64,000 nucleotides of DNA from Vicinamibacterales bacterium. GTDB taxonomy: Bacteria; Acidobacteriota; Vicinamibacteria; Vicinamibacterales; UBA8438. Position numbers and translations under genes: made by a program. The notes below the pieces were generated by a model. That model did no database searches. It was not told the origin of the DNA and saw nothing but the letters and a program-made list of their open reading frames with translations. The stretch spans positions 139,854 through 203,853 of the forward strand of contig CBDBMZ010000003.1 of NCBI GenBank assembly GCA_965207615.1. Reading direction: 5' to 3'. Shown here in pieces: positions 1,482 through 42,737 of this stretch (within the stretch, counting starts at the first letter, position 1; every line of letters starts with the position of its first letter).

Positions 1482-1519
1482 CGTGCGACGAGAGCCTTCG
1501 GCCCGAAGAGCACGACGCC

Positions 1520-2074
1520 ATGTATTGCCACGTCAACGTGAGCACGGGCAGCCGCGGCACGGGCCAGTCGGCGGCGGCGAAGTACGACTACATCAGCCGC
1601 GCCGGCAAGTACGAGGCGGCCTGCCAGGACGAGGTGGTGCACCTCGAGTCGGGCTCGATGCCGTCGTTCGCGTCGTCGGACGCGCGCCTGTACTGGGCGG
1701 CGGCCGACTGCCACGAGCGGAGCAACGGGCGGCTCTTTCGATCGCTGACGGCGGCGCTGCCCAACTCGCTGGACCCTGCCGGTCGGCTGGATCTGGCGCG
1801 GAGCTTCGCGGCGCACGTGACGTCGGGCGAGTTGCCGTACACGCTGGCGGTGCACGCCGGCGAGTCGAAGAAGGCGGGGGTGGCGGACAACCCGCACCTG
1901 CACCTGGTGTTCTCCGAGCGGGTGAACGACGGGGTGGAGCGCGGGGCGGAGCAGTGGTTCCGGCGGGCGGCGCCGAAGAAGGGCGATCCGGCGTCGGGGG
2001 GCGCGAGGAAGACGGAGCGGACGAAGCCGCGGTCGTGGCTGGAGGAGACGCGACAGGCGTGGGCGGGGAGATGA
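1520..2074 (+). CDS. mobA: MOBQ relaxase, N-terminal nickase domain (0-frame product, 184 aa)
   Basis: Collinear with RSF1010 MobA residues 1 to ~185: STGSRGTGQSAAAKYDYISRAGKY, ERSNGRLFRSL, LPYTLAVHAG, NPHLHLVFSERVNDG (HxH metal site), KPRSWLEETRQAW. The frame stops at TGA 2072-2074 inside the conserved domain. Confidence 0.85.
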   Translation: MYCHVNVSTGSRGTGQSAAAKYDYISRAGKYEAACQDEVVHLESGSMPSFASSDARLYWAAADCHERSNGRLFRSLTAALPNSLDPAGRLDLARSFAAHVTSGELPYTLAVHAGESKKAGVADNPHLHLVFSERVNDGVERGAEQWFRRAAPKKGDPASGGARKTERTKPRSWLEETRQAWAGR

Positions 2075-5000
2075 ACCTGGCGTTCGAGCGGGCCGGCGTG
2101 GACGACCGGGTGACGTCGGAGAGCCACGCCACGCAACTGGCGCGTGCGCGCGCGGCCGGCGACGCGGCGGAGGAGGTGCGTCTTCTGCTGAACCCGCCGT
2201 CGTTGCACATCGGCCCGTCGGCGAAGCACAACTGGGAGGACCGGCCGGGGAGGGCGCAGGAGCTGAAGCCGGATCGGTATGTGGCGGCCGAGGCGGCGGC
2301 GGCTTCCGCCGAGGAGGTCCGTTCGGCGCACGCGCCGGACGTGGCGGAGGTGGCCGAGGCGAGGTCGCGGGTCGCGGCGCTCGACGCGCGTATCGCGGCG
2401 CTGGAGGCGGAGGTGGCGGCCGGCGAACGGCGGGCCGGGCTGGCCGCTCGCGAGGAGTCGGTGCGGGCGACGTCGGCGGGCGGGCAGTGGCTGGACGAGG
2501 CGCACCAGTCGGTCCGCGGCGACGGCCGTCTGACGCCGGGCGAGAGGGAACGCGCCGTGGAGACGGTGGAGGGCCGTCTCCGTGCGGACCTCGCCGCCCG
2601 CGAGGAGTCGCTCATGGCGACGTCGACCGGCTCGACGTTGCTGAAGGAGGAGTACGGGGAGGCCGTCGCCGAGGCGGCGGCGGCGCAGAGCTTCGCGAAG
2701 CGGGAATCCGTTCTGGAACGGGTCGCGCAACGGGTCGGCGAGGAGCTGTCGGCTCGCGAGGAAGCGCTCCGGTCGATCCCGCTGGGCCGGCAGCATCTGT
2801 CGGCGGCGGAACAAGCTCGGGCCGTCGGGCCAGCGGGGCCGCCACTGGCCGAGCGCGAGTCGGTGGTCCGAGCGGCGGAGCAGCGGGTGGGGGAAGAGCT
2901 CGACCGACGCGAGGAACGGGTCCTCGCGGCCACGGGCGACGACCGGCTGCTGGCCGGGGCGGCCGAAGAGCTGACGGAGCGCGGAGCGGTCTCGGGCGAC
3001 GGCGGCTTCGCGGAGCGGGCGCTGATCATCGACCGGGCGGAGGACCTGCTCGAGGCGGAGCGCGCCGAGTTCGGGCTCAAGGAAGCGGATCTGCGGAAGG
3101 ACGCGGCCGGCGAGGAGTTTCTCCGCGACGCCCGGGGTGATGTCCTCGGCGCCGCCGACCGGGAGCCGGAGACGCTCGCCGACGGCTGGACCGTCATCGA
3201 CCAGGCGGCCGCGGCGAGGGCCCGCGTCGAGGCACTCGGCATCGGGGGCATGGACCTGTACCACGCCCACCTGGCGGACATCGATCCGAAGTGGGGCGTG
3301 GACGGGAACGCCGCGACGACGCGCGGGAACCAGGATGCGGCGCTGAGCGCGGCGGATTCGGACGTCGCGCGCCTCGGGCGCCTTCGCGCCGTGCTGTCGG
3401 ACGAGGCCGCCGCCGCCCGCTACCGCGAGGTCCTCGGCGATGGTCCGGGCCGGTTCGACACGGCGGACCTCGACAGGGCCCTCGCGGCGGGCGAGCGGGA
3501 GCGGGAGGAACGCGCGGCGACGGCGTGGGCCGGGCTGGCCGCCCGCGAGGAGTCGGTGCGGGCGACCTCGGCGGGCGGGCAGTGGCTGGACGAGGCGCAC
3601 CAGTCGGTCCTTGCCGACGCCGGCGGCCGCCTGACGCTTGGCGAGAGGGAACGCGCCGTGGAGACGGTGGAGGGCCGTCTCCGGGCGGATCTTGCCGCCC
3701 GCGAGGCGTCGCTCATGGCGACGTCGACCGGCTCGACGTTGCTGAGGGAGGAGTACGGGGAGGGCGGCGCCGCAGCGGCGGCGCAGAGCTTCGCGGAGCG
3801 GGAATCCGTTCTGGACCGGGTCGCGCAACGGGTCGACGAGGAGCTGGGGGCTCGCGAGGAAGCGCTCCGGTCGGTCCCGCTGGGCCGGCGGCATCTGTCG
3901 GCGGCGGAGCAGGCTCGGACCGGCGGTGTTGCGGATGCGCCGCCGACCCCGGCCGAGCGCGAGTCGATGGTCCGCGCGGCGGAGCAGCGGGTGGGAGAGG
4001 ATCTCGACCGGCGCGAGGAACGGGTCCTCGCGGCCACGGGCGACGACCGGCTGCTGGCGGAGGCGGCCGAAGAGCTGGCGGCGCGCGGCGCGGTCTTCGG
4101 CGACAGCGGCTTCGAGGAGCAGGCGTTGATCATCGACCAGGCGGAGGACCTGCTCGAGGGGGAGCGCGCCGGGCTCGAGCTCGAGGAAGGCAAGCTGTTG
4201 AAGGCCGCCGGCGGCGAGGAGTTTCTCCGCAACGCCCGGCTTGACGTCCTCGGCGACGACGACCGGGAGGCGGAGACGCTCGTCGACGGCTGGGCCGTCA
4301 TCGACCAGGCGTCCGCGGCGAAGGCCCGCGTCGAGGCGCTCGGCATCGGGGGCCTGGACCTGTACCACGCCCACTTGGCGGCCGTCGATGCGAAGTGGGG
4401 CGTGGACGGGAACGCCGCGACGACGCGCGTGAGCCAGGATGCGGCGCTGAGCGCGGCGGAGTCGGACGTCGCGCGCCTCGGGCGCCTTCGCGCCGTGCTG
4501 TCGGACGAGGCCGCCGCCGCTCGCTACCGCGAGGTCCTCGGCGACAGTCCGGACCGGTTCGACACGGCGGACCTCGACCGGGCCCTCGCGGCGGGCGAGC
4601 GGGAGCGGGAGGACCGCGCGGCGGCGGCTCGCCGTACGGCGGACCTCGAGACGGCCACGGAGGCGGCGCAGGCCGCGGCGGCGCGGTCGAAGATCAACTT
4701 GCGCCCCGCCGGCGTGCGCGCGGTCTACGAGACCGGCGAGACGCACGCGGCCGGTATCGCGGCCGTGGAGCGCACGACCGAGGCCCTCGACGCTGCGGCC
4801 GACCAGGGTCTCCCGGCCGGCACGGTCATCGACGCCTGGAAAACGAACCGTTCGGCGCCCGGCGGGATAGCGGCGGCCCTTGCCGCCGCCACCGCCGCCG
4901 CCCGCCTTGAGGAGGAGCGTGCCGAGGCGCGCCGCAAGCAGGCGGCCATCGAGAAGCGCAGCTCTCGCGTGAAGCAGCTGTTGGCCGACCCCGCGTCGGC

Positions 5001-6192
5001 CGACGCACTCATCGAGGCCCTCGAAGCGGAGGACCCGTCGTGGCGGTCTGGGATCCGCCCGGCCCGCATCGACCGGGCGCTCGACGTCGCCGAGCGGGAC
5101 GCCGGCCGCCGGGAGGTCGCCACTCGGCGACACCGGGAACACGAGGTGGTCCTGGAGGCGGAACAGCGCTTCCCCGACGCCACCAGCACGGCGTGCCAAT
5201 TCGCGGGTGGCCGTTTCGACGGGACCACGGAGGTCGGCCGTGCGGGCCGGCGCGTCTCGCAGGATCTCTCGGACCGCGCCCTCGTGAGAGCGCACGCGGC
5301 CGAGAAGGCCGAGGCGCCGGCGCCTCGCAACTTCGTTCAGCGGCTCTACGACTGGCTGCGGGATCGGCTCGAGCGGCTGTTCGGCCGTTCGCCCGGCCGG
5401 GCCGCGGAGGCCGCCGCCCTCGGGCCGGCGGCCTCCGCGGAGCGTCCGGCCGAAGCGGGACGGCCTCGACCCGCCGCCTTCGAGGAGCGGTACTGCCGGG
5501 AGTGGCCCGAGCACGCGGCCGACATCCGTCGTCCGGACTTCGAGAAGCTGGCCGCGGGCGCGTTGAGCGGCAACCGGCTCTTCGAGCGGGAGGAGCCCCG
5601 CTCGTCAAGATGGATCACGGTCGAACCGGGCGAGTTGCCGGCCGCTCTCGCCAAGCCCGCGCCGGCTTGGAGCGACAAGGCCGTCGAGGAGGTGACCCGG
5701 CGGGCTACAGTCTGGGACCCGGACCGGACCGAGGGCCGGCGGGTCGCCGAGGCGCACCTGGGCGGCTACGAGAGCCGGTTGCCGGCGGAGTACTCGCACT
5801 CGGCGGAATGGCAGGCGATCCTGAAGCGTGCGGAGGAGGCGGTCGGGAAGGCCCAGAACAGCTGGCGGTACAAGTGGGCCGACCGCCGGAAGGACGACCG
5901 GAAGAAGCGGGAGCTCGAGGCGACCGCTATCAACCGCGCCTGCGGCCGCGATGCGCGCCGCCTGCACGGGAAGATGATGGCGGGGCGTGAGGCCGCGCGG
6001 CCCGGCTGGGAGGTCACGGTCAGGATCCGGGCCGTTCAGGAGCTCATCCGGGACGAAGAGGCGACCCGTTTCAGACAAGAGCGGGAGCAGGCGCGGGAAC
6101 GGGAACAGGCGCAAGAGCGGGAGCGCCCCGCCGACAGGCCGCCGCCCGAGCAGAAGCGGCCGAGAGGCCGGGGACATGTTCTAGATCGATGA
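2065..6192 (+). CDS. mobA: Relaxase continuation in the -1 frame; the fused product would be ~1557 aa
   Basis: The -1 frame continues the MobA alignment without a gap: ..AWAG|EMNLAFERAGVDDRVTSESH.. versus RSF1010 ..AWADHANRALERAGHDARIDHRTL... The rest is an Ala/Glu/Arg-rich, coiled-coil-like extension in which I recognise no primase motif. Confidence 0.7.
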   Translation, partial: GEMNLAFERAGVDDRVTSESHATQLARARAAGDAAEEVRLLLNPPSLHIGPSAKHNWEDRPGRAQELKPDRYVAAEAAAASAEEVRSAHAPDVAEVAEARSRVAALDARIAALEAEVAAGERRAGLAAREESVRATSAGGQWLDEAHQSVRGDGRLTPGERERAVETVEGRLRADLAAREESLMATSTGSTLLKEEYGEAVAEAAAAQSFAKRESVLERVAQRVGEELSAREEALRSIPLGRQHLSAAEQARAVGPAGPPLAERESVVRAAEQRVGEELDRREERVLAATGDDRLLAGAAEELTERGAVSGDGGFAERALIIDRAEDLLEAERAEFGLKEADLRKDAAGEEFLRDARGDVLGAADREPETLADGWTVIDQAAAARARVEALGIGGMDLYHAHLADIDPKWGVDGNAATTRGNQDAALSAADSDVARLGRLRAVLSDEAAAARYREVLGDGPGRFDTADLDRALAAGEREREERAATAWAGLAAREESVRATSAGGQWLDEAHQSVLADAGGRLTLGERERAVETVEGRLRADLAAREASLMATSTGSTLLREEYGEGGAAAAAQSFAERESVLDRVAQRVDEELGAREEALRSVPLGRRHLSAAEQARTGGVADAPPTPAERESMVRAAEQRVGEDLDRREERVLAATGDDRLLAEAAEELAARGAVFGDSGFEEQALIIDQAEDLLEGERAGLELEEGKLLKAAGGEEFLRNARLDVLGDDDREAETLVDGWAVIDQASAAKARVEALGIGGLDLYHAHLAAVDAKWGVDGNAATTRVSQDAALSAAESDVARLGRLRAVLSDEAAAARYREVLGDSPDRFDTADLDRALAAGEREREDRAAAARRTADLETATEAAQAAAARSKINLRPAGVRAVYETGETHAAGIAAVERTTEALDAAADQGLPAGTVIDAWKTNRSAPGGIAAALAAATAAARLEEERAEARRKQAAIEKRSSRVKQLLADPASADALIEALEAEDPSWRSGIRPARIDRALDVAERDAGRREVATRRHREHEVVLEAEQRFPDATSTACQFAGGRFDGTTEVGRAGRRVSQDLSDRALVRAHAAEKAEAPAPRNFVQRLYDWLRDRLERLFGRSPGRAAEAAALGPAASAERPAEAGRPRPAAFEERYCREWPEHAADIRRPDFEKLAAGALSGNRLFEREEPRSSRWITVEPGELPAALAKPAPAWSDKAVEEVTRRATVWDPDRTEGRRVAEAHLGGYESRLPAEYSHSAEWQAILKRAEEAVGKAQNSWRYKWADRRKDDRKKRELEATAINRACGRDARRLHGKMMAGREAARPGWEVTVRIRAVQELIRDEEATRFRQEREQAREREQAQERERPADRPPPEQKRPRGRGHVLDR
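2437..4620 (+). repeat. Tandem direct duplication, 2 units of ~1.09 kb (~365 aa each), inside the relaxase extension
   Basis: Unit 1 starts at 2437 (gggctggccgctcgcgaggagtcggtgcgggcgac..) and unit 2 at 3532 (gggctggccgcccgcgaggagtcggtgcgggcgac..). The protein units run from GLAAREESVRATSAGGQWLDEAHQS to DRALAAGERERE, are highly similar, and differ by a few indels. Confidence 0.9.
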
Positions 6193-6365
6193 GCCCGCTT
6201 CGCGGAAGCAGCGCTCGCTAGGGCCCGGCAGGAGACGCCGTGCGCCACCAGCGCGAGGAGAGCGAGGACTGCCCGGTCGAGCTGAGGCCGTCGGAAGACC
6301 TTCAGTGACGAGTAAATCCTAACAGCCTGCCGGCAGGAGGGCCTTGGCGCGGTCGATATAGAGTC

Positions 6366-6412
6366 GAGCGGGGGTGACGACACGCTCTTCGTGCTCGACG
6401 GCGTGCCGTACC
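6366..6412 (+). repeat. 47-bp direct repeat, copy 1 (partner at 8713-8759)
   Basis: gagcgggggtgacgacacgctcttcgtgctcgacggcgtgccgtacc versus gaggggggctgacgacacgatcttcgtgctcgacggcgtgctgtacc. I count 43/47 identical. Confidence 0.9.
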
Positions 6413-6613
6413 TTCGCGCCGCTGGCCGCCGACGGTCAGCGTCAACCTCGCCGTCGTAGCCGCCCCCCGAGGCCGCGTGCGCCAGCGTCGCCTTGTCCTC
6501 CGCCGTGTCGTCGTCCTCGCTCGCCGTCACCCGTCCGGGCGTGCTCCCATTGCCCCTTACCAGCCCGGGCTTTTCGTCGGGTTTCTGGCCGGGCCACGTG
6601 ATAGGCTGAAGGC

Positions 6614-6889
6614 ATGGAGGCTCTCACGCCGTGGTTGACGCCCGTCCTTCTGGTCGGGCTCTTCGTGTGGCTGCGGCGCGAACTGAACGGTCGCCTTGAC
6701 AGATCAGAGAAGCGGCTCACCGACCGCATGGAGAAGATCGAGAAGCAGGTCGGCGAGCTGGCCAAGGACATGAACCAGCGGTTCGACCAGGTCAACCGCG
6801 AGCTGGCCGATCTGCGCGAGCGGATGGCGAAGCTCGAGGGCTCGCTCGAAGGGTTCCTCGCCGGCCGCCGCGACCGCGACGTCGCCTGA
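6614..6889 (+). CDS. Small N-terminally membrane-anchored coiled-coil protein, function unknown
   Basis: One hydrophobic helix (LTPVLLVGLFVWL) is followed by heptad-like RLTDRMEKIEKQVGELAKDM..LRERMAKLEGSLEG. No motif I can name. Confidence 0.5.
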   Translation: MEALTPWLTPVLLVGLFVWLRRELNGRLDRSEKRLTDRMEKIEKQVGELAKDMNQRFDQVNRELADLRERMAKLEGSLEGFLAGRRDRDVA

Positions 6890-6891
6890 CG

Positions 6892-7830
6892 ATGAGGATA
6901 CAAACCATGGAGAGCAACCCGACTCAGAGGACCGTGTTCATCACGGGTACGAACTCGGGCTTCGGCAAGGCCACCGTCGAACTGTTTGCGGCGAACGGTT
7001 GGAGGGTCGCCGCGACGGTGCGGAACAAGGATCGGCACGCGGACCTGTTCACGGAACTCGCGGGCGTCAAGCTGTACGAACTGGATGTGGACGACTTCAC
7101 CCGGGTAGAGCAGGTCGCAGGCGAGGTCGTCAACGACTTTGGTCGCGTCGACGTGGTGGTCAACAACGCCGGCTACTGCCTGATGGGGCCGACAGAAACC
7201 AGCACCATGGAACAGATCCGGAAGCAGTTCCAGACCAACACTTTAGGCGTATTCGCCGTGACCAAGGCGTTCCTGCCCCACATGCGCGAGGCGGGCGGCG
7301 GGACCATCATCAACATCGCATCCGCGAGCGCTGTGTTCAACTACCCCTTCATCGCCGCCTACGGCGCAAGCAAGTGGGCGGTCCGCGGTCTGACCGAGAG
7401 CCTGGCCGTCGAGCTCGCCCCGTTCAACATCCGCGTCAAGGGGATCTACCCGGGATTCCACGCGACCGGGATCTTCACCAAGCTCGATCAGGGGACCGCG
7501 GATGAAGGCCCCGAGTACCGACTCTACAAGCCTTACTACGCCAATTTCCTCTCGGCACAGAAGGCCCTGCCCAGTGCGGGAAGCCCGGACAGAATCGCCC
7601 GGACGATTTATCGCGCGGCGACGAACCCGGCCGGAAGGCCGCACATCGTGTCCGGGGCGGACGCTAAGCTGCTGGCGTTCATCAAGCGCGTGCTGCCACA
7701 GCGGGCGTTCCTGCGCTTCCAGACGCGCTCGATTCTGTCGCCTATCTCGAAAACGCAGGCGGCATTCATGAGGTTCACCTTCGGCAAGAACCAGCAACCG
7801 TTGCGCATGGACCTGCCCGAAGACTTGTGA
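6892..7830 (+). CDS. Short-chain dehydrogenase/reductase (classical SDR)
   Basis: TGTNSGFGKA (TGxxxGxG), NNAG and YGASKWAV (YxxxK). An alternative start is the ATG at 6907. Confidence 0.9.
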   Translation: MRIQTMESNPTQRTVFITGTNSGFGKATVELFAANGWRVAATVRNKDRHADLFTELAGVKLYELDVDDFTRVEQVAGEVVNDFGRVDVVVNNAGYCLMGPTETSTMEQIRKQFQTNTLGVFAVTKAFLPHMREAGGGTIINIASASAVFNYPFIAAYGASKWAVRGLTESLAVELAPFNIRVKGIYPGFHATGIFTKLDQGTADEGPEYRLYKPYYANFLSAQKALPSAGSPDRIARTIYRAATNPAGRPHIVSGADAKLLAFIKRVLPQRAFLRFQTRSILSPISKTQAAFMRFTFGKNQQPLRMDLPEDL

Positions 7831-8109
7831 TTAACCGCGCCCGGGGCTCCGGGGACGGGGTGGGTCGCGCGGGCGAGCGGCTGCACGCCCGTCCCCGGGT
7901 CGTCTGCGGAAGGGGGCGAGATCCTACGTCAAGCGGGGGTGCTACATCAGCGAGCAGTACGGTTGGCTATTCGAGCCTGCGTGCCTCGAGTACGACGGCG
8001 GGCGGCTCGTCATCCTCAAGACCACCGCCGACGGTACGGCCGAGAGCTGGACGGAGGTAGGGGGACCCGGCGCTGATCGCTCCGGACGATCATCGACAGA
8101 GGAGGCGAC

Positions 8110-8724
8110 ATGAGCGAAGCAGTCACCGTGACTCTGGGACGCGACCCGGCCCAGCGACGGCGGGCGACCTACCAGGATGTGCTCGATGCCCCCGCCCATC
8201 GGGTCGCCGAGGTCGTTGACGGCGTGCTCCACACGAATCCGCGGCCGGCCATGCCGCATTCTTTGGCGAGTTCCCGACTGGGCGGCGAACTCACGGGACC
8301 ATTCGATCGGGGTCGCGGCGGCCCCGGCGGATGGTGGATCATCTTCGAGCCCGAGCTGCACTTGGGCGAGGATATCCTCGTGCCCGACCTCGCCGGTTGG
8401 CGGCGGGAGCGGATGCCTGTCTTTCCCGATGCGCCGTACGCCACGCTGGGCCCCGACTGGGTGTGCGAAGTGCTCTCGCCGTCGACCCGCAAGCTGGACC
8501 TCCACGGCAAGCGCGACGTCTATGGGCGTGAACAGGTGGGTCATCTCTGGCTCGTCGACCCCGCCGACCGCACCCTGGAGGCCTTCGAACTGCGCGAGGG
8601 CGAATGGGTGCTGATCGCCACCGCGCAGGATGACGCCCCCGTCAGCATCCGCCCCTTCGACGCCGTCACCTTCAGCCTCGGCGATCTCTGGCCGCCGAAT
8701 GTCGCCCCGGCCGAGGGGGGCTGA
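8110..8724 (+). CDS. Uma2-family (DUF820) putative endonuclease
   Basis: VPDLAGW..PDWVCEVLSPSTRKLDLHGKRDVYGREQVGHLWLVDP is the typical Uma2 PD-(D/E)xK-like core. GAGGAGG lies 5 nt (gcgac) upstream of the ATG. The stop codon lies inside 47-bp repeat copy 2. Confidence 0.8.
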   Translation: MSEAVTVTLGRDPAQRRRATYQDVLDAPAHRVAEVVDGVLHTNPRPAMPHSLASSRLGGELTGPFDRGRGGPGGWWIIFEPELHLGEDILVPDLAGWRRERMPVFPDAPYATLGPDWVCEVLSPSTRKLDLHGKRDVYGREQVGHLWLVDPADRTLEAFELREGEWVLIATAQDDAPVSIRPFDAVTFSLGDLWPPNVAPAEGG

Positions 8725-8759
8725 CGACACGATCTTCGTGCTCGACGGCGTGCTGTACC
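8713..8759 (+). repeat. 47-bp direct repeat, copy 2
   Basis: See copy 1. In frame it reads DDTIFVLDGVLYH, which resembles the Tn3-family TnpA motif RD(S/A)TxVLDGLLYHE. Confidence 0.9.
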
Positions 8760-8775
8760 ATAGAAACGAGGACGG

Positions 8776-9303
8776 TCAGTTCGGAAAACCCCGCGTCAGA
8801 AGTCCATCGAGCGCCAGCTTGAACCACGCAGTGTATCCCGTCGGACGCTCTGCGAGCTCCCTTTGAATCGTGGGCACGGTCGCCCACTTCCATTCCTCCA
8901 CTTCTTGGTCGTCCGGTGCCGGAACACCACAGAACCGCCCAATCAGCACGTGATCGAACTCATGCTCCACGAGTCCGCCGTCCGTTGCTGCCCGGTACAC
9001 GAAGCCGAACACGACCCGCAGCGGGCAGTTGAACCCCATTTCCTCCTTCAACCGGCGCTCAGCAGCCCCAATCAGGGACTCTCCCGCCCTCGGATGGCCG
9101 CAACAGGTGTTGGACCAGAGACCGCCCGAGTGGTACTTGCCGGCCGCGCGCTTCTGCAACAGCAGGCGGTCGGTTTCGTCGAAGACGAAGATCGAGAACG
9201 CCCGGTGCAGGATTCCGTTCCGGTGAGCCGCCATCTTCTCCACGACTCCCGTTTGCCGGTCGTCGCCGTCGACGGCAATCAGGAGCGTATCGGAATCCTG
9301 CAT
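8776..9303 (-). CDS. idi: Isopentenyl-diphosphate delta-isomerase, type 1 (Nudix fold)
   Basis: LHRAFSIFVFD..LLLQKRAAGKYHSGGLWSNTCCGHPRAGE..AAERRLKEEMG matches the type-1 IDI signature, including the catalytic Cys and Glu context. Confidence 0.85.
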   Translation of the reverse strand: MQDSDTLLIAVDGDDRQTGVVEKMAAHRNGILHRAFSIFVFDETDRLLLQKRAAGKYHSGGLWSNTCCGHPRAGESLIGAAERRLKEEMGFNCPLRVVFGFVYRAATDGGLVEHEFDHVLIGRFCGVPAPDDQEVEEWKWATVPTIQRELAERPTGYTAWFKLALDGLLTRGFPN

Positions 9304-9382
9304 GGGTGTTCACCTCTTAACCGCGGCATCGACGGAATCGTCGACTGGATGTTTGCCGCCGGGAAGTCGTCGGCCCGCCGGG

Positions 9383-10651
9383 TCACCATTCTCGCGAATC
9401 TTCCTCGAACACCGAGGTCGGCAGGCTGTAGGAATGCTCGTACTCGCCGAGATTCGAGACTTCGAGCATGCTCCTGAACCGCGACCTCGACCGATACGCG
9501 GCCAGCGGCGGCGCGAGCCTCCGCAGCATCCTGTCGCCGAAATTGCGCAGCCGCAGCAGCGGAAGCTCCTTCTTCAGTCTTCCGGCGGGGAACCTCAGCT
9601 CGTCGGCCAGCCCGTCCCCGATCATTTCCCGCGACACCTGGTACATGTACTTCGCCATGGCGCGCCGCGCCTTGGGTTCGGTGAACCCCAGAACGATCGG
9701 CGCGCTGTTGACGATGCTGTTCGCCATGATGATCGCGTCCTCGTCGGGCCGCGGCTCGCACAGCGCTCCAATCTCGAACCACCTGACCGACGAGGCGTAG
9801 TCCCGGAACAGGATCTCGTCGGGTATCCCCATGAGGCGGCCGGTGTACCGCCAGACGTGCACGTACCCCTCGCGTTCCCGGTCGCTGAAATCTCCGCCGA
9901 GGTTCGATACATGCTGCAGCAGCCTCCCCGAGAAGGCGGCGGCGCCGAGCAGCATGTGCGCCGCGCTGAGGGGGACCCCGTATACCGACCGGTCCCATTC
10001 GTCGGAAGTCGAGACCAGCCGCCTCGCCTGCGCGTGCACGAGCCGGATCCTGAGGCTCAGCTTCCACCCGTCGCCGCCCGGCTCGATGCCTCCGGGCAGG
10101 TACTGTTCCAGGAGCTGCAGCAGGTTCTGCTTGAGCCGCCGCACGCCGTTCGTCATGATGCGGCTGCGAATGCGGAACGACTTGCTGATGAGCGTGGAGA
10201 AGCCCTCGATGATGGCGCCGCCCACCAGGGCGCCCATCACCATCTCGGAGTTGCGAAGGAAGGCCCGGGTCGCGTCGCGGGCGAGATCGCGGTCGAACCA
10301 GTCGGGCACGACGCCCGAGTCAGCAATCAGGTCACGCAGCGACTTGGGCGTGTCGGCCGGCAGATCGCTGAAGCTGTCGAGCGTCCTCGCGATGATTCCG
10401 TGCACGTCCGCCGGCGACGCGTTCGCCGCCAGCTCGGCGACCACCGCGTCGGCCACCGGGTCCCCCAGGGTCGTGTGGCGGATGTACCTCTCGGCCAGCA
10501 CGGGGTCGACCTTGCGGGCGGTTTCGTAACCGGCGACGTAGGCGGTCGGGATGTTCATCATGCCGGAGAAACGCTCGGTGAGGGGGGGTGCGCAACGAGG
10601 AGCGGAACCGCCTGCGTCGGGTGAACGCGGCGGCGCGGTCATCGCCGTCAC
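9383..10651 (-). CDS. MpaB/DUF2236-family oxygenase (the family that includes the latex-clearing protein Lcp)
   Basis: Length and the ..LSLRIRLVHAQARRL.. (R-x-x-H-A) block are typical of DUF2236. Its start overlaps the upstream P450 stop by 4 nt. Confidence 0.65.
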   Translation of the reverse strand: MTAMTAPPRSPDAGGSAPRCAPPLTERFSGMMNIPTAYVAGYETARKVDPVLAERYIRHTTLGDPVADAVVAELAANASPADVHGIIARTLDSFSDLPADTPKSLRDLIADSGVVPDWFDRDLARDATRAFLRNSEMVMGALVGGAIIEGFSTLISKSFRIRSRIMTNGVRRLKQNLLQLLEQYLPGGIEPGGDGWKLSLRIRLVHAQARRLVSTSDEWDRSVYGVPLSAAHMLLGAAAFSGRLLQHVSNLGGDFSDREREGYVHVWRYTGRLMGIPDEILFRDYASSVRWFEIGALCEPRPDEDAIIMANSIVNSAPIVLGFTEPKARRAMAKYMYQVSREMIGDGLADELRFPAGRLKKELPLLRLRNFGDRMLRRLAPPLAAYRSRSRFRSMLEVSNLGEYEHSYSLPTSVFEEDSREW

Positions 10652-12048
10652 CTCGGGCGCTCCCGGATGGTCACTCGAAAGCCGAGGACGCCTACCCCGA
10701 TGTTCTCGCGTTTCGGCGGGCGGCTCGACGCCGGCTCGATCCGCAGGCGCTGGGTCATGGTCGCCAGCGCCAGGACGAACAGCATCGCCGCCAGATCCGC
10801 GCCGGCGCAGGTGTGCGGGCCGCTCCCGAAAGGGATGTACGCCTGTTCGTGTCGGACCGGTCCGTCACGCCGCGAGTCCTCCAGCCAGCGTTCCGGCCTG
10901 AACTCGCCGGCCCGCGTCCAACCGTCGGCGCGGTGGTGGAGCACACGCATGCCGACGTACACCAGCGTTCCCTTCGGAACCGGATAGCCGCCCAGCACGC
11001 AGTCTTCCTCCGCCCGCCTGGCCCGCATGACATAGGGCGGCGGCTCCAGACGCAACGTCTCCTTGAACACCGCCTGCACGTACTCGAGCCTCTGCAAGTC
11101 GCCCGGCTCCACCGGCCGGTCCCCCAGCACGTCCGAGACCTCTCTCTCCACCCGATCCCGGATGGCCGGATCGCGTGCGACGTGGTGCAGCGCGAAGCAC
11201 AACGCGGCCGTCGGCGCATCCGTGAACGCGCACAGGAAGGCGATGATCTCGTCGCGCAGCGCCCGGGGGCTCGGGTACGACCACCCGCACAGACCCCGGC
11301 GCGCGGCCCGGACGAGGTGTGAAACCAGATCGCGGCCCTCGTGGGCGGGGTCGCCGGCGCGTTCGATGGCGCCGTATATCGCCGCGTCCAGCGCCGCGGT
11401 ATCGGGCGCCCGCCCCATCTTCTTGATGGACTGGCCGAACGGCAGGAGATCCAGAAGCATCGCGGCTTTCAACAGCCTGCAGATCCGCAACCCCTGATCG
11501 CGGTCCGCGTCGCGGCCGAGGACGGCCTCCGCCAGGGCGTCCCACACGTAGCGCTCCACCTCCGGCCGCAGATCCAGCGCCCGCCCCGGCGCCAGCCTCT
11601 CTCGGAGCCTCAGGGCGTGCCGGCCGATGACCTCCGCGTAGCCGGGAAGGCGGTCCTTCGTGAACGCCGTGGCCATGAGCTCGGCGCGCCGGCGGTGCTC
11701 CTCGCCGTCGTGCACGGGCAGGCAGCCGTGCTCCATCAGCGGGTTCGGCTCCCGGCCGCCGGGCGCCCAGGGCGGAAAGGACTCCGCCCGCGTGACGAGG
11801 ACCTCCCGGACGAGGTCGGCGTTGAAGACCGCGCAACACCTCAGGGAAGGAAGACTGAAGAACACGATGTCTCCATGGTCCCGGTAGAGCCGCTCCATGA
11901 ACTCCGGAAAGCCGGTGAACCGCTCGACGTAGTTGCGCAGCCGCCGGCCCCGCGGTCCCGGGGGACGGGCCGGCTTGTCGTCGGCGGAACGCTGCCCGGC
12001 CATGTCCTCCGAGCTGGGAGCCGGCTCTTCTTTGGCGGAACGCTGCAT
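10648..12048 (-). CDS. Cytochrome P450
   Basis: Heme loop FGSGPHTCAGADLA (FxxGxxxCxG) and the ETLRL (ExxR) motif. The N-terminus carries PPGPRG. Confidence 0.9.
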   Translation of the reverse strand: MQRSAKEEPAPSSEDMAGQRSADDKPARPPGPRGRRLRNYVERFTGFPEFMERLYRDHGDIVFFSLPSLRCCAVFNADLVREVLVTRAESFPPWAPGGREPNPLMEHGCLPVHDGEEHRRRAELMATAFTKDRLPGYAEVIGRHALRLRERLAPGRALDLRPEVERYVWDALAEAVLGRDADRDQGLRICRLLKAAMLLDLLPFGQSIKKMGRAPDTAALDAAIYGAIERAGDPAHEGRDLVSHLVRAARRGLCGWSYPSPRALRDEIIAFLCAFTDAPTAALCFALHHVARDPAIRDRVEREVSDVLGDRPVEPGDLQRLEYVQAVFKETLRLEPPPYVMRARRAEEDCVLGGYPVPKGTLVYVGMRVLHHRADGWTRAGEFRPERWLEDSRRDGPVRHEQAYIPFGSGPHTCAGADLAAMLFVLALATMTQRLRIEPASSRPPKRENIGVGVLGFRVTIRERPR

Positions 12049-12067
12049 CGCGATGTCCTTCTTCGAA

Positions 12068-13477
12068 TCAGCTGCCGGGCTCCCGTCGCTCGACGCGCGC
12101 CCGTATCGGCCCCTTCACCCCCAGCCCGAGCAGCTCGGCCCGGAACGGCGTGGGTGATTCGAGGGTCAGACGCATGCCCTGCGCACAGCCCGCGAGGGTC
12201 AGCACGACGAGCACGGTGGCGAACTCCCAGCCGAGGCAGCTGTGGGGCCCGATGAAGAACGGCGTGCAGGCATGGTCGGGACGGGAACCCCCCGAGCCGT
12301 CCATCCAGCGCTCCGGGCGGAACTCCGCCGGCCGCTCCCAGACCGCGGGGTCCCGGTGCGATTCGCCGAGGCACGGTTGCGCAATCGTGCCCCTGGGAAT
12401 CCGGTAGCCGCCGACGACGCAGTCCTCCGACGCCTGCCGCCAGTGCGACGTGCCGGCGTAGGAAGGTGGTCTCAGCCGGAAGCTCTCGCTGGCGACGGCC
12501 CGTGCGTACGGAAGGCGGTCGAAGTCGGCCCCGGCGACCGGGCGGTCACCGAGCACGTCGTCGACCTCCCGCTCCAGCCGCTCGCGAACTTGGGGATTCC
12601 GATCGAGCAGCTCGAGGCTCCACACCAGCCCCATCATCGGCGAGTCGATGGAGCCGAGCACGATCATGTAGATCTCGTCCCGCAGCTCCCGGTCGCCGGC
12701 GGCGAACGGGCAACCGTCCTGCGCGTCGGCGGTGCGGACGACGTGGGAGACCATGTCCTCGCCGCCGTGCGAAGGGTCGCGGGCCTTCCGCATGGCGGCG
12801 TACACGGCGTCGTCCATGCGCTCGATGGCGCGCCGGGCGCGCCGGTTCGCGGGCAGGGGCAGGCGCTTCAGCGCGCCGGACGCCGGGAGGTAGCTCAGCG
12901 CCCAGTCGCGCTTTATCGCCGCGCCGGCATCCCACGCCACTTCCGGCGGAACCCGCGGCTCGCGGCCGAGGAGGGCGTCGAGCAGAGCGCCGCACGCGAG
13001 GCGGCCGGTCTCGGCCTTGTAGTCGATGGTCTGCCCCGCCCCCCAGCGCTCCTTCATCTCGTGGATGTTGTCGGCGATGAGGTCGGCGTAGCGGCGCATG
13101 CGGCGCTCGACGAACGCGCCCCCGAACACCTCGCGCACGCGTTGGTGGTGCTCGCCGTGGTCGCGCGGCATGCAGGGCGTCGCGATGACCCCGAAGCCCG
13201 CGGGATCGTTGAACGCCGGGAACATGTCGGCCTTCTCGACGAGGACCTCGCGGATCAGGTCCGCGTCGAACAGGGCGCAGAAGTCCAGGCCCGGAATCCG
13301 GTAGTGGACGATCCTTCCGTATTCCTCGTGAAGCCGCCTCATCATGCCGCGAAAATCGCGCGAGCGCTCGATCAGGTTGCGTATCCGCCGTCCCTTCGGA
13401 CCGGGAGGCAGTCGCCGATTGCCGTTGTCGGAGCCCTGCATCGATCGCCGTTCCTTTCCTGTTTTCCCTTCCCGCAC
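12068..13477 (-). CDS. Cytochrome P450, paralogue of the downstream one
   Basis: Heme loop FFIGPHSCLGWEFA and the ESFRL motif. The N-terminus PPGPKGRRIRNLIERSRDF parallels PPGPRGRRLRNYVERFTGF of its neighbour. An alternative start is the ATG at 13441. Confidence 0.9.
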   Translation of the reverse strand: MREGKTGKERRSMQGSDNGNRRLPPGPKGRRIRNLIERSRDFRGMMRRLHEEYGRIVHYRIPGLDFCALFDADLIREVLVEKADMFPAFNDPAGFGVIATPCMPRDHGEHHQRVREVFGGAFVERRMRRYADLIADNIHEMKERWGAGQTIDYKAETGRLACGALLDALLGREPRVPPEVAWDAGAAIKRDWALSYLPASGALKRLPLPANRRARRAIERMDDAVYAAMRKARDPSHGGEDMVSHVVRTADAQDGCPFAAGDRELRDEIYMIVLGSIDSPMMGLVWSLELLDRNPQVRERLEREVDDVLGDRPVAGADFDRLPYARAVASESFRLRPPSYAGTSHWRQASEDCVVGGYRIPRGTIAQPCLGESHRDPAVWERPAEFRPERWMDGSGGSRPDHACTPFFIGPHSCLGWEFATVLVVLTLAGCAQGMRLTLESPTPFRAELLGLGVKGPIRARVERREPGS

Positions 13478-13528
13478 TCCGCGCCCGCCGCCCGCGTCGC
13501 AACGCGCCGCGCCCGTCCGCGCGCCGTG

Positions 13529-16500
13529 TCAGCCGACCGGCGCCGGCCGTGCCGTTGCAGCCGGCCCGCTCATGGCCGTTCGGGGCATCGTGACGCCGAA
13601 GTACACGGTGGCCAGGGCCGGCACGACCAGCATCAGGATCGCCGTCGCGAACAGCAGCCCGAAGCCGAGCGAGACGCCGAGCGGGCTGAGGAACTGCGCC
13701 TGAATGCTCCGCTCGAAGATCAACGGTGCGAAGCCCAGGAACGTCGTCAACGACGTCAGCATGATGGGGCGGAAGCGCCGCTTCGCGCCGTCGATGACCG
13801 CGGTCCTCACGGGCGCCCCGAGCCTGAGCCGCTCGCAGATGAAGTCGATCATCACGAGAGAGTCGTTGACGACGACGCCGGTGAGTCCGATGACGCCCCA
13901 CATGGACGTGGCGCTCAGACCGATGCCCATGATGAGGTGGCCGAGGACGGCCCCCACGATGCCGAACGGTATGGCCGCCATCACGAGCAGCGGCATGGTG
14001 TATGAACCGAACGGAATGGCGAGCAGCGCATAGATCGCCAGCAGGGCGAGAAGCAGACCGCGGGTCAGCCCCTCGAACGACTCGGCCTGCTGCTGTTGCT
14101 GGCCGCCCACCGCATACGTCAGACCCGGATAGGCGCTCTCGAGCTCGGGCAGCGCCGTGGCCGTCAGCACCGCGGTCGCTTCGCCGCCGGTGATGACGCC
14201 GTCGTCGACGTCCGCCGTGACGGTGACGATGCGGCGGCCGGCCTTGCGCCGGATCGACGACGGCGATTCCCCCAGGCTCACGGTGGCGACCCGGCTCAGG
14301 GGCACGTCGGCGCCGCCGGGCGTGCGGATGAGGTAGTCCTCGACGTCGGCTATCGTGTCGCGGTCCTCGGGCGGCAGCCGCACGTAGACGCGGACATCCT
14401 CCCGCCCGCGTTGCACGCGCAGGGCCTCTTCGCCGAAGAACGCCGCGCGCACCTGGCGGGCCAGCGCGTCGAGCGTCAGTCCGAGGGTCCGCGCCGCGGG
14501 CCGCAGCTCGATCTGCAGCTCCTGCACGCCCGACGCGTGGTCGGAGCGCACGTCGAAGACCCCCTCGATCCCGCGCAGGCTGTCGACGACCGACTCGGCG
14601 ATCGGACCGAGGCGGTCCGGCTCCGGGTGCGCCAGCTCGACCTGCACCGGGACGCCGAGGTCGAGCAGGTCGGCGCCGAAGGTCAGGCTGCGCGCGTCGG
14701 GAGCTGGGCCCGCCTGCCGCCGCCAGGCCTGCGCGAACGTCTCCGCGGCGATGTCCCGGACCTCGGCGGCAGGCAGCCTGAACTCCACGGCGGCGACGTT
14801 GGCCCGGGGATTCAGGTCGGGCGTCTGCTCGATGGAGCCTCCCAGGGTTCGCGCCCTCGCGCCGACCGTCAGGTTCACACCGGTCAGCAGATCGGGCGCG
14901 CCGTCGGGGCGACCGCGCGACAGGTCGTCGATGGCCCGTCGCCCGGCCGCTTCCAGCTCGCGCGCCAGCTCGGCCGTTCGGTGCGCGGGAGTGCCTTCCG
15001 GCATCACCAGGCTGGCCGTGACGATGTCCGATTCGACGTCCTCGATGAAGATGACGGGGACCGTTCCCGATCCGACCAAGCCGATGCACAGGATGACGGC
15101 GGCCACGCCGCCCGCGATCACGACGGCCGGCTCGCCGGTGGCCAGCCGCAACCCCCGGTCGAGCGGCCCTTCGATGAACCACCGCAACCCGCCGTCCACG
15201 CGGCCCTGGATCCACGAGAAGAAGCGCTCGACCGGGTTGGCCGGCGGCAGCGCCGGGTCCGGCAGGTGGGACAGGTGGTGCGGCAGCACCAAGAGGGATT
15301 CGACCAGCGAGACCAGCAGCACCCCGATCAGGATGATCGAGAGCGGGCGCATCATGGCGCCGATGGGGCCGGGGACGAGCAGGAGCGGCGCGAAGGCGCC
15401 GACGGTGGTGAGGACCGCGAAGACCACCGGGCGCCCGACCCGTTGAGCGCCCCGAATCGCCGCCGCGAGGGGTGGCGTCCCCCTTCGCCGCTCGGCATGC
15501 ACGTTCTCGGCGACGACGATGGCGTCGTCGACCACGATGCCGACCGCGAGAATGAAGGCGAAGAGGGAGATGGTGTTGATGGAGACGTCGAACGCCAGCG
15601 CCACCGCGAGGGCGCCGACGAAGGAGATGCCGATGCCCGCCGCGACCCACGCCGCCAGGCGGATCTGGAGAAACATGGCCAGCGCCGCGAGGACGAGCAG
15701 CAGGCCCAGCGCGCCGTTCTCCCGCAGCAGGTCCAGGCGGCTCTCGTACACTTCCGCGTCGTTGTTCCAGATCTCGACGGCCACGCCAGCGGGCAGCGAC
15801 GGGACGACCTGCCGCGCCAGATGGTCTTCGACGGCGGCCACGACCTCCATGACCTGCTCGCCGGAGGACCGGTACACCTCGACGAACGCCGCCGGCCGTC
15901 CGTTGTAGCGGACGATCAGGTCGGTGTCGGCGAAGCCGTCGCGCACCGTCGCCACGTCGCCGAGGCGGACGGCGGTCCCGTCGGCCCTGCTCAGGACGAC
16001 GATCTCCTCGAAGTCGTGCTGGTGGTAGCGCCGGCCGGTGGTGCGGACGCGCACCTGCGCGTCGCGCGTCTCCAGGCGGCCGGCCGACAGGTCGAGCGAG
16101 CCCGCGCGGACCGCGTCGGAGACGTCGGCATGCGTCAGCCCCAGCGCGCGCAGCCGGTGCAGCGGTACCTCGACGGAGACTTCATAGGCGCGCACCCCGC
16201 TCGTCTCCACCTGGGAGACCCCCGGAAGCGCGGCGAGACCGTCCTCGATGCGGTACGCCAGCTCCTTGAGCGCGCGTTCCCCGACGTCGCCGTACACCAC
16301 CAGGCGAAGGACGCTCTGGCGGTTGGTCATCTCGCGAATCCGCGGGCGTTCGGCCCGGGCCGGCAGCGTCCGAATCCGGCCGACGGCGGCCTCGACCTCG
16401 TCGAGGGCGCGGCCCGCACCGGCGCCGGCCGCGAGTTCGACGACCACGGAGGCCAGTCCCTCGGCGGCGACGGACGTCACCTCGCCGACGCCCTCCAGCG

Positions 16501-16750
16501 TCCCGACCTGCTCCTCGATCCGGACGACTATCGACTCCTCCACCTCGTTCGGGGTCGCTCCGGGGTACGGCACGGTAATCTCGATGGCGTCGAGAGACAC
16601 CGTGGGAAACGGCTCCTGCACCAGGCCGGGCAGCGACAGCAACCCCGCCGCCACGATGAAGAACATCAGGAGGTTGGCGGCCACCCCGTTCCGGGCCATC
16701 CAGGCGACGGGCCCGCGCGATTCCTGCGCGAAGCGGTCGTCCGGGCTCAA
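13529..16750 (-). CDS. RND efflux transporter, inner-membrane permease (AcrB/HAE-like)
   Basis: 1073 aa. The N-terminus ..NGVAANLLMFFIVAAGLLSLPGLVQEPFPTVSLDAIEITVPYPGATPNEVEESI.. and the 12-TM architecture are typical. It overlaps the adaptor stop by 4 nt. Confidence 0.9.
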   Translation of the reverse strand: MSPDDRFAQESRGPVAWMARNGVAANLLMFFIVAAGLLSLPGLVQEPFPTVSLDAIEITVPYPGATPNEVEESIVVRIEEQVGTLEGVGEVTSVAAEGLASVVVELAAGAGAGRALDEVEAAVGRIRTLPARAERPRIREMTNRQSVLRLVVYGDVGERALKELAYRIEDGLAALPGVSQVETSGVRAYEVSVEVPLHRLRALGLTHADVSDAVRAGSLDLSAGRLETRDAQVRVRTTGRRYHQHDFEEIVVLSRADGTAVRLGDVATVRDGFADTDLIVRYNGRPAAFVEVYRSSGEQVMEVVAAVEDHLARQVVPSLPAGVAVEIWNNDAEVYESRLDLLRENGALGLLLVLAALAMFLQIRLAAWVAAGIGISFVGALAVALAFDVSINTISLFAFILAVGIVVDDAIVVAENVHAERRRGTPPLAAAIRGAQRVGRPVVFAVLTTVGAFAPLLLVPGPIGAMMRPLSIILIGVLLVSLVESLLVLPHHLSHLPDPALPPANPVERFFSWIQGRVDGGLRWFIEGPLDRGLRLATGEPAVVIAGGVAAVILCIGLVGSGTVPVIFIEDVESDIVTASLVMPEGTPAHRTAELARELEAAGRRAIDDLSRGRPDGAPDLLTGVNLTVGARARTLGGSIEQTPDLNPRANVAAVEFRLPAAEVRDIAAETFAQAWRRQAGPAPDARSLTFGADLLDLGVPVQVELAHPEPDRLGPIAESVVDSLRGIEGVFDVRSDHASGVQELQIELRPAARTLGLTLDALARQVRAAFFGEEALRVQRGREDVRVYVRLPPEDRDTIADVEDYLIRTPGGADVPLSRVATVSLGESPSSIRRKAGRRIVTVTADVDDGVITGGEATAVLTATALPELESAYPGLTYAVGGQQQQQAESFEGLTRGLLLALLAIYALLAIPFGSYTMPLLVMAAIPFGIVGAVLGHLIMGIGLSATSMWGVIGLTGVVVNDSLVMIDFICERLRLGAPVRTAVIDGAKRRFRPIMLTSLTTFLGFAPLIFERSIQAQFLSPLGVSLGFGLLFATAILMLVVPALATVYFGVTMPRTAMSGPAATARPAPVG

Positions 16751-19527: not shown

Positions 19528-19739
19528 CACGGCCAATGGACTCGACGACCCCGGCGCGCCAGCAGCCGCATTCGCGTTTGCACCCCGTTGGCGAAGCACC
19601 GCCAATGAATACCACAATCCAGACGGTCGGCAAATGGATCAAGGCAACAGCGGGCTTCGATCTGACGGAGTCGGCCCTCCGGACACGGGTCGAGCACGCG
19701 CAGGCCGACCGGACGAAGGGCCGGGACGGGCCTGACTGT

Positions 19740-20005: not shown

Positions 20006-20243
20006 ACAGCAACTACCAGCGGATCCGTCGTCCTCTCGGGCAACGCCCGCCGGATGCTGACCCAGGGCGGGCCGGACAGGGCCCGCGAGCGACGCGGGCC
20101 GCACTGTATCCGATCCGTCCGCCGCGGCCCGCGTGCGGGTCTGTCGGCCCGCCGCTTCGGGGCGTGCCGCTCCGTCCGCCCCTGCTTCAACGCCGTGCCA
20201 GGTCGAGAGGTTGGCTTGCACGCACAGTCGTCCCATCCGCCCC

Positions 20244-42723: not shown

Positions 42724-42737
42724 ACTACACGTGTAGT
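42724..42737. other. Perfect 14-bp palindrome ACTACACGTGTAGT at the island/chromosome junction; candidate att or recombinase site
   Basis: It lies 172 nt from the int start codon and about 2 nt before homology to the PQQ-dehydrogenase paralogue begins. Confidence 0.4.

Follow-up and report, generated by a model that had tools for sequence, protein, structure and literature searches.

The two overlapping open reading frames at positions 1520–2074 and 2071–6192 of the window, the 64,000-nucleotide stretch of DNA analysed here, are a single MobA-like relaxase gene with a 1-nt homopolymer lesion. The best explanation for the break is the loss of one G from a G5 run in one copy of a multi-copy mobilisation module, either as a recent mutation or as a consensus error. 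A programmed –1 frameshift, which the initial annotation had raised as one of two readings of this site, is at the level of sequence largely refuted by the orthologues. The site fails as a recoding candidate and should therefore not be listed among new programmed frameshifts. In practice, the result matters for annotation, where two open reading frames should be treated as one gene. The features of the region are as follows.

1448–1489, – strand: RSF1010/IncQ-type oriT core, with an inverted repeat (1460–1468 / 1472–1480) adjoining GGGCGCACTTAC
1520–2074, + strand: 5' part of the relaxase gene in the 0 frame, 184 codons plus TGA; MobA/MobL HUH nickase domain, cut within its last helix
2065–2068, + strand: the lesion, four G where the six closest intact relatives have five (comparison with relatives)
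2069–2074, + strand: AGA TGA, the out-of-frame reading of GAG ATG AAC (E-M-N; three-frame translation and related loci)
2071–6192, + strand: 3' part of the relaxase gene in the –1 frame, 1373 aa from the ATG at 2071–2073; no Pfam domain
2421–4628, + strand: internal tandem duplication of about 1.1 kb in the C-terminal part (self-BLAST; copies 2421–3524 and 3515–4628, 90% identical)

Reading frames at the break

The codons at the break read TGG (2060–2062), GCG (2063–2065), GGG (2066–2068), AGA (2069–2071) and TGA (2072–2074) on the + strand. The sequence confirms the 0-frame end as first described, with the G run at 2065–2068 and a MobA/MobL relaxase fragment of 184 aa encoded by 1520–2074. 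The –1 frame is free of stops from 1483 to 6192, and joining the two frames at the G run yields ..QAWAG-EMNLAFERAG.., followed by 1374 residues. In a GC3 frame plot, the coding frame changes at around 2041–2070.

Translation from the ATG at 1520 stops after 184 codons at a TGA that belongs to the out-of-frame E-M-N codons. This TGA is the first stop in its frame for any 1-nt deletion within roughly the last 47 codons, and homologues with different upstream lesions terminate at the same triplet. The underlying sequence, GAGATGAAC, was found in 22/22 related loci. What had been taken for the context of a recoding site, AGA followed by a stop, is thus, as judged from these alignments, an artefact that appears when the conserved GAG ATG AAC is read with a one-base offset.

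The ATG at 2071–2073 overlaps the TGA at 2072–2074 as ATGA, and in four related sequences (L001, L143, L144 and L145) the ATG equivalent to it is where gene callers have the downstream gene begin. A scan of 1300–2400 for promoters and terminators returned none, and hence gave no sign of a transcription unit of its own for the downstream part. The 3' part of the gene is rich in Ala, Glu and Arg. Its 1.1-kb duplication was detected by self-BLAST and missed by Tandem Repeats Finder because of the period limit of 500.

The relaxase domain

Joining the frames raises the score of the Pfam family MobA_MobL (PF03389; gathering cut-off 26.7 bits) from 36.2 bits for the 184-aa frame to 53.8 bits, and moves the end of the profile match from position 180 to position 205. 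The joined protein aligns with R1162 MobA (PDB 2ns6) at E = 1.6e-54 over query residues 3–193 and chain residues 3–184, without a gap at the junction. The proposal that the –1 frame continues the MobA homology is thereby borne out, with 1374 further codons. In the same alignment, Y24 is the counterpart of MobA Y25, and the His triad (MobA H112, H120 and H122) is present in the aligned H..NPHLHL; the list of MobA catalytic residues was taken from PMC6856555. The positions of the acidic motif II residues E74 and E76 are occupied by Ser/Thr (LFRSLTAALP vs LFKEVEFALP). As the consensus has Ser/Thr throughout the clade, this substitution is unrelated to the frameshift.

The suggestion that the 184-aa product equals the minimal nickase domain holds approximately in extent, but the product stops 11 residues before the end of the crystallised 185-residue MobA construct, inside a helix. 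The final native residue, G183, is opposite chain residue 174 in the alignment, corresponding to D175 of MobA. In the predicted structure, G183 lies within a confidently predicted 21-residue helix (pLDDT above 90), and the confident fold extends about 40 residues past the break.

The two products of RSF1010 mobA/repB arise by in-frame internal initiation of the primase domain. The initial annotation had invoked them as a family precedent, which does not carry over to the window: the downstream start does not share the frame of the upstream part, and the 1374-aa C-terminal part gave no match to a primase or any other Pfam family at E below 0.01.

Relatives at the break site

In every one of the 22 related loci whose DNA could be read, the reading frame is continuous at the site, as it is in 22 of the 24 sequences, G4 being confined to the window and L001. 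The six closest relatives (L002, L003, L004, L020, L021 and L026) carry GGGGG. Five of these are complete single reading frames of 1555–1566 aa, and L002 exits its contig. The other 16 relatives have GCG followed by GCG, TCG or AGG, or else GCA GCG, before the GAG codon and are likewise continuous. G5 is ancestral to G4, since the majority state GCG GCG GAG equals G5 in length. A simple 1-nt indel, which the initial annotation gave as the alternative to recoding, is what this comparison supports, with six G5 relatives of uninterrupted frame and other copies bearing unrelated lesions.

The nearest relatives all have G5. L004, which is 97.6% identical to the window over 9.5 kb including the downstream cargo, is likely the positional orthologue of the window copy. 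L003 is the sister of the window copy in a neighbour-joining tree, and L026 differs from it by 2 nt in the 549-nt N-domain. Close relatives with an intact gene point to an ordinary mutation or a sequencing slip rather than a programmed recoding signal. The differences between the window and L004 comprise 218 substitutions and only four indels, namely two in-frame indels (3 and 6 nt), an intergenic C6/C5 difference and the relaxase lesion. This pattern looks like natural, selection-filtered variation and not like error-prone assembly.

L001, the second G4 sequence, is 5–8% divergent from the window in every block and branches elsewhere in the tree. Since the two are not sisters, two separate origins, or two miscalls, of G4 are probable. 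Finding the identical G4 in a pair of non-sister sequences is mildly coincidental, whichever random model is assumed. A single inherited event or a gene-conversion tract was considered as the source of both G4 runs and rejected, as the tree and the block-wise distances separate the two sequences. Moreover, the two can already be told apart within 12 nt on the upstream side of the run and 35 nt on its downstream side, so that any shared tract would be shorter than about 50 nt.

Broken copies are common in this relaxase family. A TAG nonsense codon interrupts L011, an Illumina/MEGAHIT contig, at position 83; L013 has a late frameshift, and L008, L019, L023 and L024 are truncated. Further split alleles comprise G4 to G3, G6 to G5 and a +2-nt lesion. 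Between the window and its relatives, dN/dS is 0.3–0.5 in the N-domain and 0.5–0.8 in the C-part. The value for the window copy (about 0.5) is the same as among intact copies, so that nothing besides the single lesion speaks positively for decay, although these values fit decay, error or function alike and cannot separate them. A scan of JGI metagenomes for GTGGGCGGGG N{0,2} AGATGAAC, covering the G4, G5 and G6 alleles, returned 115 matches. All those inspected were unrelated genes sharing an 18–20-mer, none with shared flanks, and no further alleles were gained.

Origin of the break

The module affected is RSF1010-like, consists of an oriT and a MobA-like relaxase of about 1557 codons, and is found in multiple copies in Vicinamibacterales. 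Loss of one G would convert GCG GGG GAG ATG into GCG GGG AGA TGA. We see an even chance that this loss is a recent, real slipped-strand deletion and not a recoding signal. After such a deletion, the full-length relaxase would no longer be the main product. Termination-reinitiation may still allow translation of the remaining 1373 codons, since their ATG and the stop share bases (ATGA), and a low background of the ancestral protein, not under selection, may come from re-pairing of tRNA-Gly on G GGG. The copy would be heading towards a pseudogene, and transfer of the element would rely on paralogous relaxases that are intact and act on the shared oriT in trans. Such action in trans is plausible: the same oriT is kept in all copies of the module, and R1162/RSF1010 MobA is efficient in trans (PMC6856555).

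The break shares with homopolymer frameshift pseudogenes of multi-copy mobile elements and with long-read consensus errors the 1-nt contraction of a short G run, the intact sisters and the unrelated lesions elsewhere; the only difference is the chance ATGA stop-start overlap created here. A length polymorphism of G4/G5 at one site, apparently recurrent, is also reminiscent of phase-variable (contingency) homopolymer tracts. Whereas known switches of this kind usually have 7 or more bases, the tract here has only 4–5.

Several observations count against a real mutation and in favour of an error in the consensus, whereby the true genome would read GGGGG, the gene would be continuous over 1558 codons and the missing G would be a homopolymer under-call of a long-read assembly. 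We regard this as a tentative reading, although one to be taken seriously. A contraction of a G homopolymer is a typical long-read error, the 7.03-Mb contig implies long reads, and repairing the run yields the same protein as in the G5 relatives, with 1374 downstream codons free of further damage. L001 is a long-read contig in metaMDBG style, and its sample also yielded L144 with the odd +2-nt lesion. Many long-read metagenome relatives have homopolymer lesions at low coverage, such as L145 (G4 to G3) at 5x, and the relaxase gene shows multiple frame switches in several ENA contigs, with several per gene in some relatives (P0092 and P0096). However, only 2/17 G/C runs of five or more differ from L004 over 9.5 kb, the other one being intergenic, and about 30 other large reading frames of the window have Pfam matches and show no sign of interruption. 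Four other long-read-style assemblies (L003, L004, L020 and L021) read G5 in the same context and hence show no systematic context error, and a single contig of 7 Mb suggests good coverage.

That the G4 allele is real and tolerated or even functional appears improbable to us. Here G4 would have had at least two independent origins, in the window and in L001, and have been kept as a clean fission into a nickase fragment (residues 1–183 of the 184-aa product) and a 1373-aa C-terminal protein starting at M185, translationally coupled through the ATGA overlap of stop (2072–2074) and start (2071–2073). A low level of tRNA-Gly slippage on G GGG, ahead of the rare AGA, could supplement these with some full-length protein. 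Such a fission would account for the recurrence of G4, this being the cleanest possible split with only E184 lost, and would, if true, turn a fused relaxase into a two-subunit one in a single step. In line with it, Y24 and the His triad lie entirely upstream of the break, gene callers place the downstream start at the overlapping ATG in four split alleles, and both non-sister G4 lineages retain an intact downstream reading frame of 1373 or 1511 aa. On the other hand, the break falls midway in the 21-residue helix with the folded region continuing beyond it, and the product is shorter than the minimal MobA construct. The GGGGAG that directly abuts the ATG is too close for Shine-Dalgarno-driven initiation. 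Moreover, only 2/8 G-type sequences are split, the nearest relatives being fused, and dN/dS provides no evidence of selection after the split.

Least probable of all, and highly doubtful in our judgement, is a programmed –1 frameshift in which the P-site tRNA-Gly slips back on G GGG while the rare AGA is awaited, so that a 20-kDa nickase and a 165-kDa full-length relaxase would be made in a set proportion. AGA is rare as first claimed, with 32 of 1532 Arg codons (2.1%) in the 33 GC3-supported reading frames of the window; tRNA-Gly can re-pair on G GGG, the –1 product is the ancestral protein, and a GGAGGAG at 2042–2048 and a possible hairpin 6 nt downstream, the expected distance of a stimulatory structure being 5–9 nt, are reminiscent of stimulatory elements. 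The –1 sites of dnaX and of IS3-family transposases likewise have overlapping frames, a longer fusion product, a re-pairing run and an upstream G-rich, Shine-Dalgarno-like stretch. These known sites also combine an X XXY YYZ heptamer (A AAA AAG) with a stimulatory hairpin or pseudoknot and conservation among orthologues, whereas the window departs from them in all three respects. At G GGG AGA (2065–2071), only the P-site Gly codon re-pairs, and the heptamer is absent because AGA becomes GAG in the –1 frame and cannot re-pair. The downstream sequence folds no better than chance (MFE –42.4 vs a shuffle mean of –42.9 kcal/mol, z = 0.15; 98/200 shuffles fold as well), and a scan of 1300–2600 at E up to 1 returned no Rfam match of any kind, frameshift elements included. 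GGAGGAG codes for a conserved L-E-E shared by every relative, whether its gene is split or continuous. It ends 16 nt before the run, the expected spacing of a stimulator being about 10–14 nt. The predicted structure does not place the break at a domain boundary, and the arrangement is not conserved, the nearest relatives being among the 22 continuous sequences. The initial annotation had named contiguous orthologous frames with an extra G, or unrelated lesions in orthologues, as grounds for refuting a programmed shift, and both are present.

An RSF1010-type origin of transfer upstream

An RSF1010-type oriT sits directly upstream of the split relaxase gene. This side result is biologically more interesting than the recoding candidate: an RSF1010/IncQ-type oriT with a MobA-like relaxase forms a multi-copy chromosomal module in soil Acidobacteriota (Vicinamibacterales), linking a phylum far from Proteobacteria to one of their classic broad-host-range mobilisation systems. 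As in RSF1010/R1162 (IncQ1, MOBQ1), the oriT core, an almost identical inverted repeat with GTAAGTGCGCC, lies directly upstream of a gene whose N-terminal HUH nickase domain, aligned with MobA over 190 residues, has the catalytic Tyr and three His. In contrast to the small plasmid, the module is chromosomal, multi-copy and found in Acidobacteriota. The relaxase itself differs from MobA by a repetitive C-terminal part of 1374 aa with no detectable primase domain, by the Ser/Thr of its clade at E74/E76 and by the interruption of the gene.

GGGCGCACTTAC is the complement of the nick-region motif GTAAGTGCGCC. The nick is predicted on the – strand, at a position that we assume to be that of R1162. 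The oriT block is nearly invariant in more than 20 related loci. The version in L002 matches 198 plasmids at 100% over 32 nt, 193 of them typed as mobilizable, and in an IncQ1/MOBQ plasmid the matching stretch is flanked by mobC and the mobA/mobB region.

Frame break in the relaxase gene

The MobA-like relaxase gene is split by a 1-nt homopolymer lesion of an ordinary kind.

Features of the split gene and its flank
3-659, + strand: conserved upstream ORF, no Pfam match
803-1336, - strand: conserved upstream ORF, no Pfam match
1448-1489: RSF1010/IncQ-type oriT core, 30 nt upstream of the relaxase start
1483 to 6192, + strand: open -1 frame (ORF reading)
1520-2074, + strand: upstream ORF, 184 aa (ORF reading)
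2060-2074, + strand: codons TGG GCG GGG AGA TGA (direct sequence reading)
2065-2068, + strand: G run (direct sequence reading)
2421-3524 and 3515-4628: internal tandem duplication of ~1.1 kb (~368 aa), 90% identical, in the C-terminal part of the relaxase

Joining the two frames (1520-2068, resuming at 2068) yields ..RQAWAG-EMNLAFERAG.. and a further 1374 residues. The Pfam MobA_MobL score thereby rises from 36.2 to 53.8 bits, and the match, which had ended at profile position 180, now reaches 205 of 224. The 0-frame ending and the -1 continuation of MobA homology are as the initial annotation described them: the fused product aligns with the R1162 MobA crystal fragment (PDB entry 2ns6; E = 1.6e-54), and no gap opens at the junction. 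In a GC3 frame plot the coding frame switches at ~2041-2070 without a non-coding gap. This is a true frame break within a homologous gene, as opposed to a chance ORF pattern.

In the 2ns6 alignment, Y24 matches the catalytic MobA Y25 and H..NPHLHL the MobA His triad (catalytic residues as listed in PMC6856555), and this homology marks the N-terminal domain as a HUH relaxase of the MOBQ/MobA type. The motif II glutamates E74/E76 of MobA are replaced by Ser/Thr (LFRSLTAALP, residues ~74-78 of the 1520-2074 product) in the window and the entire acidobacterial clade. Their loss is unusual in a MOBQ relaxase. No Pfam domain was found in the C-terminal 1374 aa, which are Ala/Glu/Arg-rich. Relatives fall into two size classes, ~1555-1566 aa and ~820-849 aa; the long class shares the ~1.1-kb duplication with the window copy, and the short class is without it.

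The site in relatives

The homologous position was read in the DNA of 23 further relatives. Six loci (L002, L003, L004, L020, L021 and L026) carry five Gs (G5; GCG GGG GAG ATG AAC), and 16 have other continuous states (GCG GCG, GCA GCG, GCG TCG or GCG AGG, then GAG ATG AAC). Four Gs (G4) occur in the window and L001 only. Each G5 locus has one uninterrupted ORF (1555, 1559, 1556, 1566 and 1562 aa), except that L002 runs off its contig, and the protein P0099 (1562 aa) shares a 90% cluster with the window's 184-aa product. As G5 equals the majority state in length, comparison of the alleles identifies G4 as a 1-nt deletion from G5.

The window is 97.6% identical to L004 over 9.5 kb, downstream cargo genes included, 97.0% to L003 and 92.0% to L001. 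Every sub-block lies nearer to G5 sequences than to L001, and the N-domain distance is 0.36% for L026 and 4.7% for L001. In a neighbour-joining tree the window's partner is L003, and L001 branches elsewhere. G4 thus probably has two separate origins, whether as mutations or as miscalls. It is unlikely that the window and L001 share it by descent or through a long conversion tract, since the tree separates them and their flanks differ within 12 nt on the upstream side of the run and 35 nt on the downstream side.

AGA TGA is the reading, one base out of frame, of the universally conserved GAG ATG AAC (E-M-N). TGA 2072-2074 is the first stop in its frame after any 1-nt deletion in approximately the last 47 codons. 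Because one stop catches deletions over such a stretch, the database holds several 184/185-aa homologues with differing lesions, all ending there.

Lesions in 184/185-aa homologues
After NDG: P0120, P0121 (G4 to G3 in L145)
After GVER: P0039, P0119
After APKG: P0035 (G6 to G5 in L143)
After GGDPA: P0109
After GGAR: P0034
After TKPR: P0030 (+2 nt in L144)

Beyond these, a TAG nonsense codon interrupts L011 (on a MEGAHIT contig) at position 83, the frame of L013 shifts late in the relaxase gene, and L008, L019, L023 and L024 hold truncated copies.

Recoding signals and the 184-aa product

The site lacks an X XXY YYZ heptamer, the P-site codon alone being able to re-pair; predicted folding of the 92 nt downstream is no stronger than that of shuffled sequence (z = 0.15), and an Rfam search returned no match. 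GGAGGAG at 2042-2048, ending 16 nt upstream of the run, encodes the conserved L-E-E. With no heptamer, no unusual downstream fold and G4 not kept in relatives, programmed frameshifting is very improbable. The initial annotation had offered it beside a simple 1-nt indel; the latter is supported, and the former is countered by the 22 continuous loci (six G5, 16 other) and by the unrelated lesions that had been named as evidence against it, found in the 184/185-aa homologues, L011, L013 and the truncated copies. The proposed recoding context of AGA and a stop is a frame artefact of the E-M-N codons. AGA is indeed rare, making up 32 of the 1532 Arg codons counted in 33 ORFs with GC3 support, and we infer that low-level, unselected tRNA-Gly slippage on G GGG ahead of it is mechanistically possible.

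The 184-aa product, earlier equated with the minimal nickase domain, is 11 residues shorter than the crystallised domain and ends within a predicted helix. Its last native residue, G183, aligns to 2ns6 chain residue 174 (MobA D175). AlphaFold2 modelling of P0001, a homologue with an unbroken frame (mean pLDDT 83.2), puts the equivalent G196 in a helix at residues 184-204 (pLDDT ~94-95 for residues 181-200), and the confident fold reaches ~residue 240. As the G183 equivalent sits mid-helix with the fold continuing, the break is predicted to fall within a helix, not at a domain boundary.

oriT and the multi-copy module

The oriT block reads GGGCGCACTTAC-CGGTTTCGC-TGC-GCGAAACCG-ACGTGCGAC, its 9-bp inverted repeat adjoining the complement of GTAAGTGCGCC, and is near-invariant in >20 related Vicinamibacterales loci. 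Between the window and the L002/IncQ version the stem shows a compensatory change (CGC..GCG against CTC..GAG). At least 118 plasmids match the L002 variant at 100% over 32 nt; of the 198 plasmids that it hits, 193 are typed mobilizable. In one IncQ1/MOBQ plasmid the match lies between mobC and the mobA/mobB region, the place expected for an IncQ oriT. Given the relaxase domain match and the oriT block directly upstream, the locus is, by homology, an RSF1010-like oriT-relaxase module.

Vicinamibacterales MAGs carry the module more than once: a single 6.6-Mb contig has four or five copies (L003, L004, L015, L020, L025). Together with the two conserved upstream ORFs, the module occurs in 3-5 copies per genome. 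The block-wise mosaic of similarity among copies suggests recombination between them.

Real deletion or consensus error

We favour a real, non-adaptive deletion, to which we give about an even chance. Over 9.5 kb the window differs from L004 by 218 substitutions and four indels (two in-frame, an intergenic C6/C5 at 6463 and the G-run lesion), only 2/17 G/C runs of >=5 differ, ~30 other large window ORFs with Pfam matches show no sign of interruption, four other assemblies of long-read style have G5 in this same context, and the L011 nonsense codon exemplifies genuine decay in the family. The same counts speak against a consensus error in which the missing G is not real. This reading is nevertheless possible, if doubtful: what has changed is the length of a homopolymer, shortened on a contig that is evidently long-read, L001 and other split alleles lie on long-read metagenome contigs, some at 5-6x coverage, and some contigs switch frame several times within the relaxase gene. 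dN/dS values do not separate the models.

The 6463 difference (C6 in the window, C5 in L004) is the sole other 1-nt indel in those 9.5 kb and lies where there is no coding signal. P0092, P0096, P0077 and P0060, from ENA long-read metagenome contigs, show at least two frame switches in the first 200 codons, a pattern that suggests consensus error at low coverage more than biology and calls for caution with any frameshift claim in this family.

A real deletion would leave a start and a stop overlapping as ATGA (ATG 2071-2073, TGA 2072-2074), and gene callers start the downstream gene at the equivalent ATG in L001, L143, L144 and L145; termination-reinitiation could therefore yield the 1373-aa remainder. 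A tolerated or functional fission, recurrent and clean with coupled translation, is unlikely. Under a non-adaptive deletion, intact paralogues could mobilise the window's copy in trans, as oriT is common to all module copies and R1162 MobA is active in trans (PMC6856555); selection on the split copy would then be relaxed.

Neighbouring genes

Between the relaxase and an HTH_23 gene (20807-21559) is a ~14 kb cargo block (6193-20204). Its genes encode an SDR, a Uma2 nuclease-like protein, an MpaB/Lcp-type oxygenase, two cytochrome P450s and an RND efflux trio (AcrB, HlyD, OEP); L026 lacks the block, and L004 has it at least to window 9503. An IS110-family transposase, a tyrosine integrase with an Arm-DNA-binding domain and an adjoining ORF span 22444-23520, 41410-42573 and 42737-43567. 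The 276-aa ORF next to the integrase matches only the last 55 positions of the PQQ-dehydrogenase profile and may be a gene truncated at an island boundary.
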